Notes: generated by a model from the sequence alone, not told the origin. DNA of 64,000 nucleotides from a virus (IMGVR_UViG_3300032524_000070), one strand, 5' to 3'. Counted from the stretch's first letter, positions 2,988 through 53,000 are shown. A program made the numbers and translations.

Positions 2988-2988
2988 T

Positions 2989-3020
2989 CGGTAGTTTGAC
3001 TATCCCGCACGCTTATCAGC
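2989..3020 (+). promoter_or_regulatory. Putative phage late promoter (class III, partial match)
   Basis: CGGT-AGTTTGA-CTAT immediately after the FmdB stop. The downstream GTRR element is not conserved. Confidence 0.45.
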
Positions 3021-3049
3021 GAAGGGCAAGTTCGTAGAACGCGCCTCGG

Positions 3050-3217
3050 CACCTCCTCTCCGCACCGGAGATGGCTAGACGGATCAACGACGGAATGAGC
3101 CACAGCTTGTGCTTCCCCTGATGGGGACCTGCCTCCCGCGCTTCGGCGGGGATGGACACGATGAAGCCACACGGACTGACGCTCGAACCCTGTTGACCCT
3201 TCTCGTGAGGTGCCCTG
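3050..3217 (+). promoter_or_regulatory. Structured 5' leader of the sheath gene with two hairpin + ACGGA-loop units
   Basis: Unit 1 is TCTCCG-cac-CGGAGA then TGGCT...AGCC enclosing two ACGGA. Unit 2 is TCCCGCGC-TTCG-GCGGGGA-TGG...ACGGA. Similar units occur at 17459-17604. Confidence 0.55.
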
Positions 3218-8581: not shown

Positions 8582-8610
8582 TTGACTAAGTATCGGGCAG
8601 TCCGTATCTT
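8582..8610 (+). promoter_or_regulatory. Sigma70-like promoter, predicted leaderless
   Basis: TTGACT-N17-TATCTT, then 7 nt to ATG 8618, with no clear Shine-Dalgarno. Confidence 0.65.
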
Positions 8611-8617
8611 CCGGGGT

Positions 8618-9958
8618 ATGGACTGCCCGATCTGCCCCACGACTGTCGTTGACGCCCGAGGGCTCGCGACCCACTTCCGCCATCAGGATGCGACCCACCC
8701 CGTCTACAAGACGTGGCAGGAGGAGCAGCGGTGGGCCGGGAAGGTCGAGGGGGAGGACTACATCGTCTGCCTGGAGTGCGGGCATCGAGCGGGGACGCTG
8801 GCCCGGCATCTGAAGGCGGTTCACGGGATCACGGCTGACCAGTACCGGGTGAAGCACGGGGACGTGCTCATCCGGGCCACCAGCGTCACGGAGAGGCGTC
8901 GGGAGGCCATCCAGAGTGCGCGGACTACCTCGACTGCTTACGACGGCTTCAAGAGCGTCGTGTGCCCTTCCTGCGGGGAGGGGCACGAGGTCCACAAACT
9001 GTCTGGCGTGGTGCCTTGCCCTGAGTGCAAGGAGCGAGCGGTGGCAGCCCACTGGGAGGGGAAGTCGGAGCCGGACGACTTCGTCGTCTGCCTGGAGTGT
9101 GGGTACCGGGCTGAGAACCTGACGAGCCACATCCAGAACGCTCATCCTGGGTACCGGGAGAGGCATCCCGATGCCTACATGGTGGCGTTGGGGTCTGCCG
9201 TCAGGGACAAGTCCGCGTTGAAGGGCCGCAGGCGGTCACCCGAGTTCAAGCAGGCCATCCGGGAGGCGAAGACCATCGGGCTGACCCAGGGGGACTTCGA
9301 GCCCTACCTGGAGGCTGACGGCACGGTGGACCATCGACGTGCGATGGAGGGCTTGATGGTCGCGTGGCCGACGCTCAAGCGGTACATGGACGACCTGGGG
9401 TTGAGCCCCACCGACAAGTACATCCGGCAGCGACAGGCCGAGCGGGTGGTGACCCTCACGGTGGAGGGTCTGGAGGCATTCAAGCTGAAGAACGGGAAGG
9501 TGAGCGTGGGCCAGGCCGCGAGGGACATGGGCTACTGCTTCAGGACGGTCAAACGGGAGTGCGACCGTCTTGGGCTGCCGACGTTCCATCGCCGAATCCG
9601 TCAGACGCTCTGCCTGGACGCCGTGTCAGAAGCCCTCGGTGGTCTGGACTACGCCGAGGAGTGGAAGTCCTGGCGGTTCACGAACCCTCCCACGGGTCAT
9701 CGGTTCCGGTTCGACGGCTACTTCCCGGACGTGGGGTTGGTTGTCGAGTTCCAGGGGCACCAGCACTACACGTTCCCGAACGCCTTCATGGTGGACGAGT
9801 CATACCGGGGGGAGTGGGAGGCCATGGTGGAGCGGGACCGGATCAAGCGGGAGCTGATCGAGGCGGCTCCCGATCTGCTCTACCTGGAGATCCGGGAGGA
9901 CGAGCCGTTCACGGACGAGATGTACCTACGGGGTCGTCTCGCTGGGCTGGGTCAGTAG
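8618..9958 (+). CDS. Zinc-finger (C2H2 + two ROS/MucR-like) homing-type endonuclease with C-terminal Vsr/DUF559-like nuclease
   Basis: CPIC...H...H, DYIVCLECG....LARHLKAVHGITADQYR (MucR-like), a second VVCLECG....LTSHI, NUMOD3-like KGRRRSPEFKQAI, and RFDGYFP...LVVEFQGHQH...RDRIK (Vsr/EDxHD-like). Confidence 0.8.
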   Translation: MDCPICPTTVVDARGLATHFRHQDATHPVYKTWQEEQRWAGKVEGEDYIVCLECGHRAGTLARHLKAVHGITADQYRVKHGDVLIRATSVTERRREAIQSARTTSTAYDGFKSVVCPSCGEGHEVHKLSGVVPCPECKERAVAAHWEGKSEPDDFVVCLECGYRAENLTSHIQNAHPGYRERHPDAYMVALGSAVRDKSALKGRRRSPEFKQAIREAKTIGLTQGDFEPYLEADGTVDHRRAMEGLMVAWPTLKRYMDDLGLSPTDKYIRQRQAERVVTLTVEGLEAFKLKNGKVSVGQAARDMGYCFRTVKRECDRLGLPTFHRRIRQTLCLDAVSEALGGLDYAEEWKSWRFTNPPTGHRFRFDGYFPDVGLVVEFQGHQHYTFPNAFMVDESYRGEWEAMVERDRIKRELIEAAPDLLYLEIREDEPFTDEMYLRGRLAGLGQ

Positions 9959-16058: not shown

Positions 16059-16433
16059 CTAGTCTTCCCACACCTTCTTGCGACGCGGCTTCTCTACTTC
16101 CGGTCGTGGGATGTGGCTCCAGGTCTTCCCTCTTCCGATGTCCGCGATGGCCTGGCGGGTCACTCCGTAGTCCAGGGCCACGTCCTTCGGCTTCTCCCGG
16201 CCCCTGAGCCGGAGGAGGATGACCGGGATGTCTGTGGGCCTCAGCTTGCAGCCCCGGAGGGTCACATCCGGCGGGTCAGGTCGGTCGAGGTCGGGCCACG
16301 ACTTCCCCTTCACCAGGTTCGATACGGCACCTGCCGTGATCTTGAACTCAGCAGCCAGATTCTTCTGTGACTCACCTTCGGCCACCCGGTCGATGATGCT
16401 CTGAGCCTGGTCCTCTGTGAGGCGCTTGTTCAC
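16059..16433 (-). CDS. Tandem HTH protein (two HNH-endonuclease-type C-terminal HTH repeats, no nuclease)
   Basis: RLTEDQAQSI...GESQKNLAAEFKIT..AVSNLVKGKSW and KLRPTDIPVI...EKPKDVALDYGVTRQAIADIGRGKTW. The GTG start lies 6 nt after a -10 box. Confidence 0.75.
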   Translation of the reverse strand: MNKRLTEDQAQSIIDRVAEGESQKNLAAEFKITAGAVSNLVKGKSWPDLDRPDPPDVTLRGCKLRPTDIPVILLRLRGREKPKDVALDYGVTRQAIADIGRGKTWSHIPRPEVEKPRRKKVWED

Positions 16434-16439
16434 GCGGAC

Positions 16440-16468
16440 AGCGTACTCCGAGCCCAAAATCAAGTCCA
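16440..16468 (-). promoter_or_regulatory. Sigma70-like promoter, predicted leaderless
   Basis: TGGACT-N17-TACGCT on the minus strand, then 6 nt to GTG 16433. Confidence 0.55.
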
Positions 16469-16478
16469 TTTTGATTCT

Positions 16479-16510
16479 CGCTAGGGCTTCTATACGCCAC
16501 GGGTAGTGAG
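16479..16510 (+). promoter_or_regulatory. Putative phage late promoter (class III) for the tail tube operon
   Basis: CGCT-N7-CTAT-N12-GTGAG. Confidence 0.55.
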
Positions 16511-16545
16511 CGACAGGCGAAGCCCCCGCCCTACGGAGAACGATC

Positions 16546-17412
16546 ATGCCGAACATGGACAATGGCCCCGCGAACGGACTGGGAGGTTCCTCGTACCTCT
16601 ACGATTTCGGGACCTCTCCGAACACGCGGACGGCGGTGAGCCAGAAGGTGCGCCTGCTGACGCCGCACTACGGGTCGAGCGCAGCGATGCACCAGATGGG
16701 TGTCGTCTCCAGCTTCAACCCCTCGCAGAGCCGGACGGTCGAGCCCGTGCGTGGCGTGGGCTTCGGCGACCAGATCGCTGAGCTGGTGCCGAGCGTGACG
16801 GAGCCCACCACGGGTTCCTTCGAGCGTGCGCTCCTGTACCTCTGCAACCTGTGGCAGGCCACGGGCTACGCCTCGGGTGTGGACGGGCCGGTGCGGTCGC
16901 TGGCCCACCACAAGTGGCCGTTCGACATCGAGCAGCAGCTCGTCTTCTCGACGCTGGCGGACATCGACCTCGGGGCAGCGAACAGCGGGCACGCGGGCGG
17001 CACGGGCTCCTTCGACGGTGGTGTCAAGCAGACGGTCTACCCGGCGGTGACCCCGGACTTCGGCACGGCTGGAGGCCCGAGCGGACACGGCTCCGGTGGT
17101 CCTGCCACGGCTCCGGGAGCAGCCCGTGGTCACTCGGCCATCATCACCATCTACGAGGCCTGCTGGTTCACCTCCTGGTCCGCCACGTTCGCCAAGGACA
17201 GCGGCATGATCATGGAGTCCGGCGACGTGACCGTCTCCGACGTTCACGACTTCGCCTCGATGTACGGCGAGTTCCTGGCGACGGGCAACGATCCGACCAT
17301 CGGGCAGCTCGGTTCCATCCGCTTCGGTGAGAGCGACTCCGGCTTCCAGATCGCGCAGGTCGGTGGCGACCTGACGGGTGGTTCGCCGCAGTCGCCCTTC
17401 ATCAACACGTAG
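16546..17412 (+). CDS. Tail tube protein (T4 gp19-like fold)
   Basis: GVVSSFNPSQSRTVEPVRGVG...ELVP...FERALLY...PFDIEQ...TIYEACWFTSWS..F......ESGDVTV, located upstream of the chaperones and tape measure. Confidence 0.8.
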   Translation: MPNMDNGPANGLGGSSYLYDFGTSPNTRTAVSQKVRLLTPHYGSSAAMHQMGVVSSFNPSQSRTVEPVRGVGFGDQIAELVPSVTEPTTGSFERALLYLCNLWQATGYASGVDGPVRSLAHHKWPFDIEQQLVFSTLADIDLGAANSGHAGGTGSFDGGVKQTVYPAVTPDFGTAGGPSGHGSGGPATAPGAARGHSAIITIYEACWFTSWSATFAKDSGMIMESGDVTVSDVHDFASMYGEFLATGNDPTIGQLGSIRFGESDSGFQIAQVGGDLTGGSPQSPFINT

Positions 17413-17454
17413 CCGTCCGGGACAAGTAGCCGGGCTGGGTAAGATGTAGACGAC

Positions 17455-17667
17455 CACCTCCCCCATCAGGGGGGATGGTTCATGTGACCACGGAAACAGC
17501 CGGTGGCCCCTCAACGGACCAAACGGACAAATGTGACGACCCCCGCTTGCTCTGTACTCCTCTCCTGCGGGAGATGGCTGGATGTGCTGACGACGGAAAC
17601 GGCCTGATCACGACCGCTTGTTCTGTCCAGAGCCCCCGCTGCTGTTCCCGACAACAACCTGGGGAAC
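17455..17667 (+). promoter_or_regulatory. Structured intergenic leader with two hairpin + ACGGA-loop units and two extra ACGGA
   Basis: TCCCCC-atcag-GGGGGA-TGGTT...CACGGAAAC-AGCC and TCTCC-tgcg-GGAGA-TGGCTG...GACGGAAA-CGGCC, homologous to the sheath leader. Confidence 0.55.
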
Positions 17668-18867
17668 GTGCAGATGCAGATCGACTTCAAAGCTCTGGAG
17701 CAGGCTCTTGCTCCCATCGAGGAGATCGGCCAGGGCGAAGTGACCTTCGAGGCCGCCTCGACCACCATCACCTTGCGCGTTCTACGGCCCGCCGAAGAGG
17801 TGGAGGCACAGAGGTACGCCGCTTCGGTGTTGAAGGACGATGTCGAGGGCGACCACTCTGCGGTGGACTACCTCGACCGCTTCCGTATCGCCTGCCTGTC
17901 CCACTCCGTCGTCGCCATCGGTGACCTGGACTTCCGGGGCCTGGAGTACGTCGAGACCGGCGACAAGCTCCCCAACGGGAGCCCCATCAAGGTCACCAAG
18001 TCGAAGGCGATGCGGACGCTCCTGGCTCGTTGGACTCGGGCCACGCTGACGGTGGTGTACTCGAAGTTCAGTGACCTGACCACCTCGTCGGAGGTGGAGG
18101 CAGAACGCCTCATCGAGTACACGCCTTCGGACCTGTCTGCCGAACTCGACCGGCTCAACAAGCGGGTGGCCGAGATCACGGCGAAGATGGAACAGGAGAA
18201 GATGATCGAGAAGGCGAAGTTCAGCGACCAGGTGGAATCGATCTCCAAGGTCACCACCGACGCCATGAACCGGCCTCCCGCCACACCGGCCATCGCCGCA
18301 CCCGAGCCGGAACCGGAGGTGGACCCGGAACAGGCGTTGCCAGCCGCATCCCGCCGCACCGGCCCCATCAGTCCAACCACTGCCCCGCCCCCGGCCGCCA
18401 GGGAGCCCCGTGCTGCCCAGCCTGCTCCGGCACAGCAGCCGCTCCACCGGACGCCCCCGCCGCGTGCGGACTCGTCGTTCATCAACCCCGATGATGACGA
18501 CGGGATGAACGCTGCTCTCGACGCAGAGCACAACCGCATCCTTGCCATGCGTCGGCAGGCGGCAGCAGGCCAGCCCACTGTGGATGATGCGTCAGCTCTG
18601 GAGCAGATCCACCCGCAGACGGCCCACCGCCGGACGCCACCGCATCTGGAGGCCAAGGAGGCAGAGGATGATGTGGGGGTGCTGGACGCGGCGGCACAGG
18701 CGGCCAAGGAGGTAGGCGAGATCGATGGCAAGCCGGTGTTCGCTCTCCCCGCACAGGACTTGGGGGTGAAGGCCCCTCCCGCTCCGGCTGATGCACGGGC
18801 AGCCATCAACCCCCCGCAGGCATCTGGGTCCGAGAACCCTCGGTTCCAGCGTCGCAAGCAGCCCTGA
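17668..18867 (+). CDS. Putative tail assembly chaperone 1 with Pro/Ala-rich tail
   Basis: Lies between tube and tape measure. The N-domain ITLRVLRPAEE...LSHSVVAIG... is followed by a coiled coil and a disordered C-terminus. Start is GTG 17668 or ATG 17674. Confidence 0.6.
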   Translation: MQMQIDFKALEQALAPIEEIGQGEVTFEAASTTITLRVLRPAEEVEAQRYAASVLKDDVEGDHSAVDYLDRFRIACLSHSVVAIGDLDFRGLEYVETGDKLPNGSPIKVTKSKAMRTLLARWTRATLTVVYSKFSDLTTSSEVEAERLIEYTPSDLSAELDRLNKRVAEITAKMEQEKMIEKAKFSDQVESISKVTTDAMNRPPATPAIAAPEPEPEVDPEQALPAASRRTGPISPTTAPPPAAREPRAAQPAPAQQPLHRTPPPRADSSFINPDDDDGMNAALDAEHNRILAMRRQAAAGQPTVDDASALEQIHPQTAHRRTPPHLEAKEAEDDVGVLDAAAQAAKEVGEIDGKPVFALPAQDLGVKAPPAPADARAAINPPQASGSENPRFQRRKQP

Positions 18868-50043: not shown

Positions 50044-53000
50044 TGGCTGCATACCCAGAGTTCCGAGGCCCGGACGGCACGCTCCGGCAGAAGTTCATCC
50101 TCTCCACGACCCTCCCGAACCAGGTGTTCACCGGGGCCATGCCCCTCGACACGGTGGACATGCAGGTGTCGGTGCGAGGCGGGACGTACACCAGCGACCC
50201 CGACTACATCACCTTCGAGGGTACCGGCTTCACGGTCCCCAACCCGTCCGCCTTCCCTGACGGCCTCCAGCTCCTTCCGGGCAGCAACGAGATCAAGGTC
50301 AAGGCCATCCTCTCCACAGGGTCGGTCACGCAGGAGGCAATTCTCCAGGCCAACCTCTCGCTCGAAGCGGACATCGGCGACCTGGCTGACCCACCGACCG
50401 GCATCTTCTTGGAGCGGTTCAACTCGACGGTCAGGGTCACGGTCGAGGGCCTGACCAACACGAACGTCGCGGGCTACCACTTCTACGCCTCCACTCAGCC
50501 GGGTGGCGGTGACGTGGGCTACTTCCGCATCAACCCCTCGCTGGTCATCTCCGGCGAGGTGGTGGAGGCCACGGACGCCCTGGCGACCCTCTCGGTCGAT
50601 GCGAGCATCGTGCTCGACTCCGAGGGCTTCCACGCGGCTGACCCACTGAACTTCCGGTTCCGGGGCACACAGGAGGACAGAGACGACCTGGTGCTGGGCA
50701 TCAACTTCGATGAGCTGCTGGAGGTCCCGGAGACGGCCAGCAAGCTCCGCATCGCCACGATCATCCAGACGGTGCGGGAGACCCAGCAGTACACCTTCGA
50801 GCACGACCGGCAGGCGTCGCTGGAGAGCACTTTCCCTGCTCTGCCACACGCTGATCTGGCGACGGTGCCGGAGGCCGACCCGCTCTACTACGTCGCCACG
50901 GCCATCCACATCATCAACGGCGAGGAGATCGAGAGCTTCTTCAGCCCGGAGGTGCTGGGGGCTCCCCTGCGGATCACCCCGTCCGTGGGCTCGTTCCCGC
51001 AGGTCACCCGTCAGCAGATGGTCAAGGGAGCCGTCCTGTCCATCTACCGGAGCCAGCCGCAGGTCCGGGTGGACCCGGGCTCAGCTCTGCGGGACACGTT
51101 CATCGACCCCTTCACGACCGAGGCGGATCGTGTCCGGTTCATCATCGACTTCCTGCACAACGCCCAGAGCTTCCCGACGCTGCTGCTCATCGACGACCCC
51201 GGCTTCACCGGCACGTCGATCCCTGTCGCGCAGTCGTCGTACAAGACGGCCTTGCGGGAGGCGTTCTTCCTGACATCGGACGCCCAGGTCCAGACGATCA
51301 TCGACAACGCCTTCGACAAGCTCGCCAGCAACTACGGCGTCATCCGGGACGGCGGCAAGCGAGCCCGAGGCGAGGTCACCTTCTTCGTGACCAACCGGCC
51401 CACGACCTCCATCACCAAGACCATCGGGACCATCTGCCTGGGTGGTGGGACGACGTTCCGCACGACATCCACTGCTGTCATCTCGCCCACGGGAGCCGGA
51501 CGGAACTTCAACCCGTCCACGGGTCGCTACTTCGGCAGGGCCTTCATCCAGGCAGACGCGGCTGGATCTGCGGGCAACCTGTCCGAGGGGCAGGTGTCGG
51601 TCATCTCCAACAACACGTTGAACGTCCAGGTGACCAACGAGTCCAGGACGTTCGGCGGCACCGACAGGCAGTCGAACCGCGACATCGCTCTCGAAGCCAT
51701 GCGGGTCATCGCCTCCGTGGATTCGGGTACCCGCATGGGGTACGTGGACAACGCCATCAAGACGCCGGGCGTCGAGCAGGTGAGCGTCATCGAGTCCGGT
51801 CACGCCTTGATGATGCGGGACCGCAACGACGCGGGCCGCCACGTCGGCGGCAAGGTGGACATCTACCTGCGGGGCAGCTCCGAGGCCAAGGTCACGGACT
51901 CGTTCGCCTTCGGCTTCCAGACCCGCCAGGCCCAGCAGTTCGAGCCGGTCGGCGACCTGGCGACTCTGCGCTTCCGGGCGGTGGACCCGGCCCTCTCGGC
52001 TGAGAACCCGCTCATCGAGATGCTGGACCTGCCCAGCATCGATCTGGTCTTCGAGAACGCCAGCAAGAGCCTGGTGTTCGACCTGACCGACGTGCAGTAC
52101 GTCGCCTACGACCAGATCCAGCTCGACGCAGCTCTCAACGACCCCACGAGCCATGACCTCGACGACGAGTACCGGGGTAGCTACCGCTACCGCACGTCGG
52201 ACAAGTTCGTGATGACCCGCCAGCCCGTCATTTCGGTGACCAGCTTCGTGGGTGCTCAGACCGGGGCACTGGTCGAGGGCATCTACGACCTCTACCGGGC
52301 GTCCGACCCGCTGGAGCTGGGCCGCTCCACGGACGCAGGCGACTACGTGCAGGTCACGGAGCCTCTGACCTCCGGGGCCACCATCCCCTCGTCTACGCCG
52401 ATCACGGTGCCCGGCGAGGCCCACACGATGCTCGACGGCATCGAGTACCTGAACAACCTGGGTGCCAACTTCTTGACGGTCCGGGTGTGGAACACCGAAC
52501 GGACCATCGAGTACAACGGCCCCCTCTCGACGGCCATCCGGGACTTCACCATTATCGACGGGACGGAGCGGGTGCCCCTCGGCCTCCAGCTCACGGACGG
52601 CAGCCGCATCGTCGAGGGCCAGTCGGTGCTGGTGGACTACTCGCACGACGAGAACTTCACCATCGAGTACCTGAGCAACGCGGTCGTTCGGGTCGTCCAG
52701 GAGAACATCGACAACGACTCCCACATCACGGCGGACGCCATCGCCAAGTGGGCGGTCGATGTCCCGGTGGACTTCACCGCCACCATCGTCCTGCTGGCCA
52801 ACACGAACGCCAACGTGGTGGACGGCCTTGTCCGTACTGCCCTGGCCCGGCTGTTCAACACCTTCGGTCTAGGCACAGCCGTCCGGCAGTCCGACGTGAT
52901 TCGCGCGATTGATGCCGTCGTCGGGGTCAGCTACGTCATCACCCCGTTGACCCTCATGGTCCGGGGCGACGGGGCACAGATCGTCCGCGAGGTGGTGACC

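Follow-up and report, generated by a model that had tools for sequence, protein, structure and literature searches.

How huge phages keep structural genes in balance when their products are needed in very different amounts is poorly understood. At the locus described here, a gap of 255 nt lies between the stop codon of a probable tail tube gene (17410-17412) and a GTG at 17668, and the gene that follows heads a run of + strand genes of roughly 47 kb with intergenic gaps of at most 63 nt. What is the function of such a gap? The initial annotation had taken it for a second copy of an RNA motif with ACGGA in its loops, acting either as a step-down control point or as the source of a processed small RNA. 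Our analysis leads to a related but different answer: with a probability of roughly 0.55, the gap would be a cis-regulatory 5' leader that limits or regulates the translation, and perhaps the stability, of the messenger of a long tail-assembly operon. The window, i.e. the whole stretch of 64,000 nt that was analysed, covers bases 32008-96007 of a contig of 132,823 bp and 65% GC. Its IMG/VR entry, a linear virus fragment of about 25% completeness, points to a huge phage. The MAG bins in which relatives occur belong to several phyla and are an unreliable guide to the host.

The genes on both sides of the gap are assigned on weak leads. The 288-aa upstream protein matches no Pfam or PHROG family, and profile searches against PDB and PHROG gave nothing usable, but its language-model neighbours in the ESM Atlas are a Phi812_tail_tube cluster (0.95) and a DUF2001 cluster (0.94), and it is on this basis a probable tail tube protein. 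Its AF2 model is beta-rich, unreliable (pLDDT 46) and too poor for a structure search. The 397-aa downstream protein, again without a Pfam or PHROG match, has weak Atlas leads to chaperone families (0.81) and is possibly a tail assembly chaperone; a 1106-aa protein follows, with a match to a tape-measure domain (24.7 bits) that lies below the Pfam cutoff of 33.2. For the downstream gene, ATG 17674 is the likelier real start than GTG 17668, since ATGCAG is kept at the start in relatives, and counted to this ATG the gap spans 17413-17673 (261 nt). Table 1 lists the features discussed below.

Table 1. Flanking genes, elements of the gap and related elements before the sheath gene, in window coordinates.
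Feature	Position	Strand	Basis or remark
Module A1, paralogous, leader of the 1769-aa sheath gene	3053..3101	+	alignment, R1 E = 0.003
Module A2, CCUCCCGC...GCGGGGAUGG...CACGGA, hp1a type	3133..3185	+	sequence
Sheath ORF, 1769 aa	3218-8527	+	tail-sheath C-terminal domain, PHROG 2839, E = 1e-22
Upstream gene, tail tube protein (probable), 288 aa	16546..17412	+	high GC3 frame
Weak hairpin GUCCGG...CCGGGC, no U tract, just 3' of tube stop	17415..17435	+	RNAalifold, close relatives
-10-like element GGTAAGAT; family GGTAnnnT, in AT-rich relatives TGGTAnnAT	17438..17445	+	comparison
hp1a (in unit 1 of the initial annotation); 5' arm CACCUCCCCC anti-SD-like, 3' arm GGGGGGAUGGUU SD-like	17452..17480	+	folds
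Unit 1: TCCCCC/GGGGGA, TGGTT, CACGGAAAC, AGCC	17459-17503	+	sequence
hp1b CCACGG-AAACAG-CCGGUGG; first ACGGA (17490) in stem	17488..17506	+	folds
Tail 1, purine-rich, ACGGAC at 17514 and 17523	17507..17542	+	5' strand of predicted long-range helix
Box 1 CUUGCUCUGU, family consensus YUUGNGCUGU	17546..17555	+	30-sequence alignment
Unit 2: CTCCTCTCC-tgcg-GGAGATGGCT..GACGACGGAA..GGCC	17557-17604	+	sequence
hp2 (in unit 2) UCUCC-UGCG-GGAGA with outer pairs, then UGGCU	17558..17577	+	covariance model, folds
Tail 2 with fourth ACGGA (17593)	17578..17616	+	window fold: pairs back onto box 1
Box 2 CUUGUUCUGUCC	17617..17628	+	3' strand of predicted long-range helix
Hairpin burying the SD GGGGAA (17661-17666), ends one base 5' of start codon	17639..17673	+	folds
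Downstream gene, 397 aa from ATG 17674	17674..18867	+	starts + strand gene run

Relatives were gathered via the tube protein and comprise 80 IMG/VR loci of 32-68% GC. About 50 of them (42-68% GC) have 190-290 nt between the tube stop and the gene that follows, and a more distant group has about 68 nt. To the close relatives L002-L006, the nucleotide identity of the gap (0.80-0.85) is like that of the tube gene (0.82-0.85), and that of the downstream gene is 0.69-0.72, with 52-60% identity of the protein. Of 35 relatives, 34 have stops in all three + frames of the gap, the frame is disrupted by indels, and the distances from box to box do not differ by multiples of three; a peptide on either strand was rejected on these grounds, and the open minus-strand frames are due to the scarcity of T-containing stop complements on the purine-rich strand. 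Judged by this comparison, and in line with the initial annotation, the gap is a functional non-coding element and no peptide gene. The Rfam 15 covariance models gave no match at the gathering score in the whole window, the best sub-threshold matches in the gap (E up to 10) being the unrelated mir-2278 (18 bits, compared with 93 required) and Ms_AS-1 (16.7, compared with 37), and a tRNA and tmRNA scan found none. A literature search on leaders of this type found nothing. One relative deviates at this place: its tube gene and the following gene are separated by 384 nt (L012:3829-4214) that are free of leader elements and resemble inserted coding sequence.

What is kept in the family is an order of short elements. 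From 5' to 3', there is often a hairpin after the tube stop, then GGTAnnnT, a CCUCC...GGAG hairpin, a hairpin followed by GGUGG, and a purine tail with ACRGAY; next come box 1, hp2, whose 5' arm is CU-rich and whose 3' arm is GA-rich, with a subsequent UGGUYAGAU, a second tail, box 2 and the SD hairpin. The last is long, its 3' arm is the real SD, and it ends 1-6 bases 5' of the start codon. The gap, which is conserved, probably folds as a structured RNA, as judged from these comparisons. The hairpin after the tube stop is stronger in many relatives than in the window. The stem of hp1a has compensated changes in L004 and L006; in the window, its outer GACCA/UGGUU pairs are present in the centroid, and the inner stem only in the minimum-energy fold. 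At the place of hp1b, most relatives have a hairpin that is followed by GGUGG or GGCGG and whose stem varies (CCGAGG/CCUCGG, CUGGG/CCCAG, CCGAA/UUCGG), according to a reading rather than a formal count, for which the alignment (A6) is too short and shifted.

Does this RNA belong to the transcript of the tube gene, or does it begin a transcript of its own? Within 80 nt of the tube stop, GGTAnnnT is found in 26 of 34 relatives, compared with 2.5 +/- 1.5 in shuffled sequences, and the short-gap and AT-rich relatives keep the element as well, spelled TGGTATAAT, TGGTACAAT and similar. It occurs at the same place across relatives and consists of a TAnnnT hexamer with a G two bases 5', as in an extended -10 element; as its T, A and final T are invariant and three positions are free, it is more like a -10 hexamer than an RNA motif. 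A consensus scan of 16400-18000 for promoters and terminators gave nothing, i.e. no -35 element of a sigma-70-type promoter, no two-hexamer promoter and no terminator-like site. As GGTAnnnT follows the tube stop so often, the gap is probably the 5' untranslated region, of about 220 nt, of a separate transcript that would start near 17452, and hp1a would be the 5'-terminal stem-loop of this transcript. For the same reason, a plain intercistronic attenuator is disfavoured. In short-gap relatives, a start about 7 nt past the -10-like element would fall inside a conserved hairpin, which is awkward for a simple picture of promoter and 5' hairpin.

The element is also seen elsewhere. GGTAnnnT, often as GGGTAG(C/T)GT, heads several + strand intergenic gaps (contig G000:C1 at 15271, 17812, 30684 and 127131; in the window, besides 17438, also at 2990), and it may be the common -10 element of the promoters of this phage. 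The AT-rich relatives with gaps of about 68 nt (L053-L078, e.g. L058:3832-3903) have a minimal leader, in which TGGTAnnAT is directly followed by a conserved hairpin, GGGUAGCCGUACCC, and then by an invariant AAACGGACAGGAU and the start codon; in these minimal leaders, ACGGAC adjoins the SD even at 42% GC.

At the other end of the gap, the sequence from the SD to the start codon is predicted to lie in a conserved helix. This SD hairpin is present in most of 34 relatives (about 30 by reading of the folds), with diverged stem sequences, and was assessed by per-sequence folds with controls. Its mean folding z is -1.45, compared with -0.21 at tube-gene starts (p = 4e-4). The unpaired probability of the SD is 0.27, and the corresponding value where the tube genes start is 0.51 (Mann-Whitney p = 3e-6). 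RNAalifold predicted no pairs in a MAFFT alignment from box 2 to the start codon (A8), which is explained by 3' arms that are out of register in this alignment. With the true SD inside the hairpin, free 30S subunits should seldom reach it, and the step-down after the tube gene that had been proposed initially is partly supported in this respect.

The module in the middle of the gap, hp2, can be followed by a covariance model (R1) that comprises box 1, hp2 and the following bases. In about 24 relatives, R1 has one strong match each, always at the same place, and since it is single-copy in each relative, the element appears to be locus-specific and not a dispersed promoter or terminator. In the model-guided alignment, 85% of the cells are paired in hp2, compared with 49-74% in slid controls, and there are 18 double-change cells, compared with 8.7 +/- 2.2 in shuffles, of which none of 500 reached this number. 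The two arms almost never swap: the 5' arm is CCUCUCC-like, as is the anti-SD of 16S rRNA, and the 3' arm with its tail is GGAG(G/A)UGGUC-like. The complementarity of this 3' arm and tail to the 16S tail (GAUCACCUCCUUA) is high, with a mean of -10.3 kcal/mol; the real SD of the downstream gene reaches -7.1 kcal/mol, and the best 5% of random 20-mers reach -9.3 kcal/mol.

The gap had been described as a second copy of a unit in the leader of the sheath gene, and this relation proved to be a true paralogy. In a global alignment, unit 2 and the sheath-leader unit at 3053-3101 score 21, compared with -3.8 +/- 4.1 for shuffles (best of 1000, 10), and R1 also matches there. The sheath leader (2988-3217) shares with the gap a -10-like element, CCUCC...GGAGAUGG hairpins, ACRGAY tails, a UUGNGCU box and an SD region, but the order and number of the elements differ, and R1 detects this leader only weakly. 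The sheath leaders of relatives are made of the same elements as the gap after the tube gene, although R1 did not detect them, and in contig G000 and four large related records, R1 found nothing beyond the gap and the sheath leader of the window. The composite pattern GGRGATGG-N3-30-ACGGA has four copies in the 132.8-kb contig, all on the + strand and divided evenly between this gap and the one that precedes the sheath gene. Outside the window (G000:C1:8290-8345; locus L115:391-446), the module occurs a third time, with a box-like GCTTGAACTAC and then a hairpin, CTCTCCTGCGGGAGATGG, of which 18 nt are identical to hp2, loop included. About 20 nt 3' of this copy, an 83-aa DUF5659 gene has its SD and start, and the module is thus not limited to tail genes.

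The PHROG match of the sheath protein is confined to its last approximately 350 residues and leaves out the long N-terminal part. An insertion of about 8 kb between sheath and tube genes, which also contains minus-strand genes, is headed by a gene (8582-9958) whose 458-aa product has weak homing-endonuclease matches and a Ros/MucR zinc-finger domain (PF05443, E = 5e-15); an internal duplication (8732-8800 and 9053-9121, 74% identical) lies in this gene.

Of the words in the gap, ACGGA had attracted attention first. Both units and the four ACGGA (starting at 17490, 17514, 17523 and 17593) are where they had been reported, but the enrichment that had been claimed for the word is weak within the window, where the + strand has 100 copies against about 71 expected, a marginal excess, and where another stretch of 250 nt, near 52321, likewise has four. 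Across the relatives, it is strong and strand-specific. In 34 non-redundant gaps, ACGGA occurs 35 times (11.4 expected) and the wider word ACRGAY 64 times (10.5 +/- 3.1 expected), with two occurrences on the opposite strand; in 15 sheath leaders, ACRGAY is found 20 times (4.5 expected), with none on the opposite strand. When k-mers were counted without bias in the 34 gaps, CAGAT came out at 45 occurrences instead of 8, with AGATG and ACAGA also standing out, and lower-GC relatives have ACAGA or CAGAU in place of ACGGA. In view of these k-mer counts, ACGGA is the high-GC spelling of a family-wide word, ACRGAY. RAYGK was considered as a broader motif and given up in favour of ACRGAY, being enriched in the close clade only. 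Clusters of purine words were also sought in G002, a relative of 400 kb, where the scan gave no leader-like peaks. The overlap of ACGGA with ribosome-binding sites, noted earlier, is true but trivial, as it amounts to an SD GGAG preceded by AC at 5 of 69 gene starts.

ACGGA cannot be regarded as the loop motif for which it had been taken, because the word is replaced by ACAGA or CAGAU at lower GC and because its four copies in the window are located in predicted helices, namely in the stem of hp1b, in a long-range helix with box 2 and in an extended hp2 stem. In the predicted ensembles, the unpaired probability of ACRGAY is 0.41, compared with 0.39 in the rest of the leader; the idea of single-stranded display sites was rejected on this basis, and this level of pairing fits the helices without proving them.

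With what does the word pair? The boxes are conserved themselves: T, G, C and T columns of box 1 are nearly invariant in an alignment of 30 sequences, and the box word TGTGCT occurs 22 times in the 34 non-redundant gaps, compared with 2.2 expected. ACGGA is complementary, with one G-U pair, to the UCUGU core that both boxes contain. Both the minimum-energy fold and the centroid of the window pair 17514-17526 with 17614-17626, the strands being ACGGA-C-CAA-A-CGG of tail 1 and CCG-C-UUG-U-UCUGU of box 2, and RNAduplex pairs GGAC (17516-19) with GUCC (17625-28) and GGACAA (17525-30) with UUGUUC (17618-23). In relatives, the duplexes of tail 1 and box 2 change in step (GGACAG/CUGUCC, GAUAG/CUAUC, AAGACAG/CUGUCUU, UUCACA..GCAA/UUGC..UGUGAA, UACAG..GCGA/UCGC..CUGUA, AAUAGC/GCUAUU). 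Co-variation was assessed by permutation, comparing own-genome with mismatched duplexes of tails and boxes, with one representative for each of 19 clades. For tail 1 and box 2, the own-genome duplex has -9.21 kcal/mol, compared with -7.81 +/- 0.40 kcal/mol when permuted (p = 0.00065, or about 0.003 after correction for the four pairings tried; p = 0.005 with a 17-nt box; Wilcoxon p = 0.013), and five of the 19 clades are without the effect. The same test gave p > 0.3 in all other cases, i.e. for tail 1 with box 1, for tail 2 with box 1 or box 2, and for two reversed-sequence composition controls. A long-range helix of tail 1 and box 2 is thereby moderately supported by the comparison. The enrichment of ACGGA is then explained by the complementarity of these words to the CUGU core of the boxes and not by a protein-binding loop motif.

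Other pairings of the boxes were considered. A helix between box 1 and the sequence after hp2, which would close module 2, was rejected as a family feature (mean z -0.08, no co-variation), and the pairing of box 1 with tail 2 is seen in the window's own fold only, where the ACGGA at 17593 is part of a window-specific extension of hp2. A pairing of box 2 with the 5'-most 70 nt of the coding sequence was likewise rejected (mean z -0.39).

Taken as a 5' leader that controls the downstream operon, the gap may function as follows. Transcription would start a few bases past the -10-like element, giving a leader of about 220 nt with hp1a at its front. In each of the three hairpins, a pyrimidine arm resembling the anti-SD would be matched by a purine arm resembling an SD, and the last of them would enclose the true SD, so that free 30S subunits rarely gain access. 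The ACGGA or ACRGAY words of the tail after hp1b would pair with box 2, just 5' of the last hairpin, and the resulting long-range helix would enclose box 1 and hp2. Such a fold could set a low or regulated rate of initiation for a gene whose product is required in much smaller numbers than the tube protein. In addition, the hairpin at the 5' end and the SD-like sequences, masked as they are, may guard the long messenger from decay or act as ribosome standby sites. A trans-acting factor may open the fold, and the conserved single-stranded boxes would then be its likeliest target. Dozens of uncultured huge-phage lineages, of widely different GC, retain this leader; it stands at the head of an operon exceeding 47 kb, and the giant sheath gene is preceded by a sister copy.

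What alternatives exist? The gap could be a control region at the level of DNA, in which a promoter and repeated binding sites for a regulator (ACRGAY and the boxes) gate the tail operon and RNA folding is incidental. The strong conservation of short words between variable spacers would suit such a region, as would the -10-like element that is retained even by relatives with 68-nt gaps, together with an operator-like inverted repeat over the expected start, and the folding energy of the whole leader is not unusual (z = -0.46 and -1.04). Against this, there are compensatory changes in hp2 and in the SD hairpin, tail 1 co-varies with box 2 at a distance of about 100 nt, and the arms retain RNA-type G-U pairs as well as their SD/anti-SD polarity, while direct-repeat DNA sites need no complementarity to the boxes. 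We therefore regard a DNA control region as unlikely.

A bolder form of the leader hypothesis appears slightly less probable still: the leader could be a ribosome-directed riboregulator of huge phages, of a new kind, that arose from a tandemly duplicated initiation region. Its masked, extra-strong SDs and anti-SD mimics (CACCUCC) would capture 30S subunits or compete for them, and the helix of ACRGAY and box would switch the true start on. If this were true, the expression of tail assembly could follow the state of the translation machinery or a phage factor.

Processive antitermination would assign the box (UGCUCU and UGUUCU in the window) and the hairpin a role like that of lambda nut or HK022 put, by a modification of the polymerase that lets it transcribe the entire operon (more than 47 kb) as well as the 5.3-kb sheath gene. 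The order of box, spacer and hairpin occurs twice, 3' of a promoter-like element and at the head of a very long + strand gene run, and the boxes may resemble boxA (GCUCUUUA). The family consensus GCUGU deviates from boxA, however, the hairpin loops vary (UGCG, ACCA, GGUC, GCU and others), unlike those of boxB, box 2 appears to be base-paired, and the consensus scan of 16400-18000 found no terminator-like sites nearby; such a function is improbable. Equally improbable is a leader that only stabilises the mRNA, by a 5' stem-loop and STAB-SD-type sequences that bind 30S subunits or block nucleases, with no role in the rate of translation. For 5' stabilisers of the polypurine or SD-like type, there are documented cases in Bacillus and mycobacteria (PMC2358910, citing Agaisse and Lereclus 1996 and Hue et al. 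1995), hp1a would be placed at the 5' end of the presumed transcript, and the 16S tail pairs more strongly with the 3' arm of hp2 than with the real SD. However, the SD-like sequences are masked by anti-SD-like arms, and the most widely kept feature is the occlusion of the true SD, which a pure stabiliser would not need. A separate or processed small RNA, as initially considered, or a small peptide gene is very improbable, for although there are a promoter-like element, several hairpins, an ATG directly 3' of two of them (GGAGATGG) and an ORF at 17475-17924, the consensus scan gave no terminator or 3'-end signal 5' of the next gene, the ATG is replaced by GTGG, CTGG, TTGG or ACGG in relatives, the GC3 of this ORF is unlike that of genes, and the frames are broken by the stops and indels described above.

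Which known systems does the leader resemble? Two candidates were rejected. Leaders of the CsrA/RsmA type have conserved GGA motifs, typically A(N)GGA, in loops or single strands, one of them over the SD; in the gap, the lower-GC forms ACAGA and CAGAU are without GGA, and the words of the window lie in predicted helices and are not more unpaired than their surroundings. Guanidine-II (mini-ykkC) riboswitches consist of two small hairpins, each with an ACGR tetraloop; the loops found here are CAUCA, AAACAG and UGCG, they vary among relatives, and there is no Rfam match.

The lambda nut site consists of boxA and the boxB hairpin, whose conserved loop is bound by N, and the put RNAs of HK022 serve a similar purpose of antitermination. 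The gap has in common with both that a short conserved box is followed by a hairpin, twice, 3' of a promoter-like element and at the head of a very long operon; it differs in its loops, which are not conserved, in a box consensus unlike boxA and in a box 2 that is seemingly paired. The STAB-SD and polypurine stabilisers (cryIIIA of B. thuringiensis, phage SP82 in B. subtilis, mycobacterial katG; PMC2358910) are similar in having non-initiating SD-like sequences in the 5' UTR with strong complementarity to the 16S 3' end, as is found here for the 3' arm and tail of hp2, and also with regard to a stem-loop at the presumed 5' end. The difference is that the SD-like sequences of the gap are predicted to be paired with anti-SD-like arms, and access of 30S subunits to them is therefore doubtful.

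Related to the proposed function are phage operators that occlude the SD, such as phage Mu mom, where a translation-inhibition stem is opened by Com, and the leader of T4 gene 32. Like these, the gap has a conserved hairpin that holds the SD beside the start codon. The likeness to mom extends to a conserved single-stranded element just 5' of the hairpin, where Com binds the mom mRNA, and to a small zinc-ribbon gene directly 5' of the sister sheath leader. This gene (2559-2987) encodes a 142-aa FmdB-like protein (PF09723 with 31.9 bits, slightly below the 34.4 required; PHROG 1076) and is found at this position in 23 of the 23 relatives where it was detected; its product is a candidate for an RNA-binding or regulatory partner. 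A structured leader that hides the SD is thus of a well-known kind, but this family is absent from Rfam, and in comparison with mom and gene 32, the leader is far longer and modular, contains repeated SD/anti-SD hairpins and a predicted long-range helix, and has no sequence similarity to them. If the proposed reading is true, SD/anti-SD hairpins, two boxes and a long-range helix together would constitute a portable, sequence-defined RNA module.
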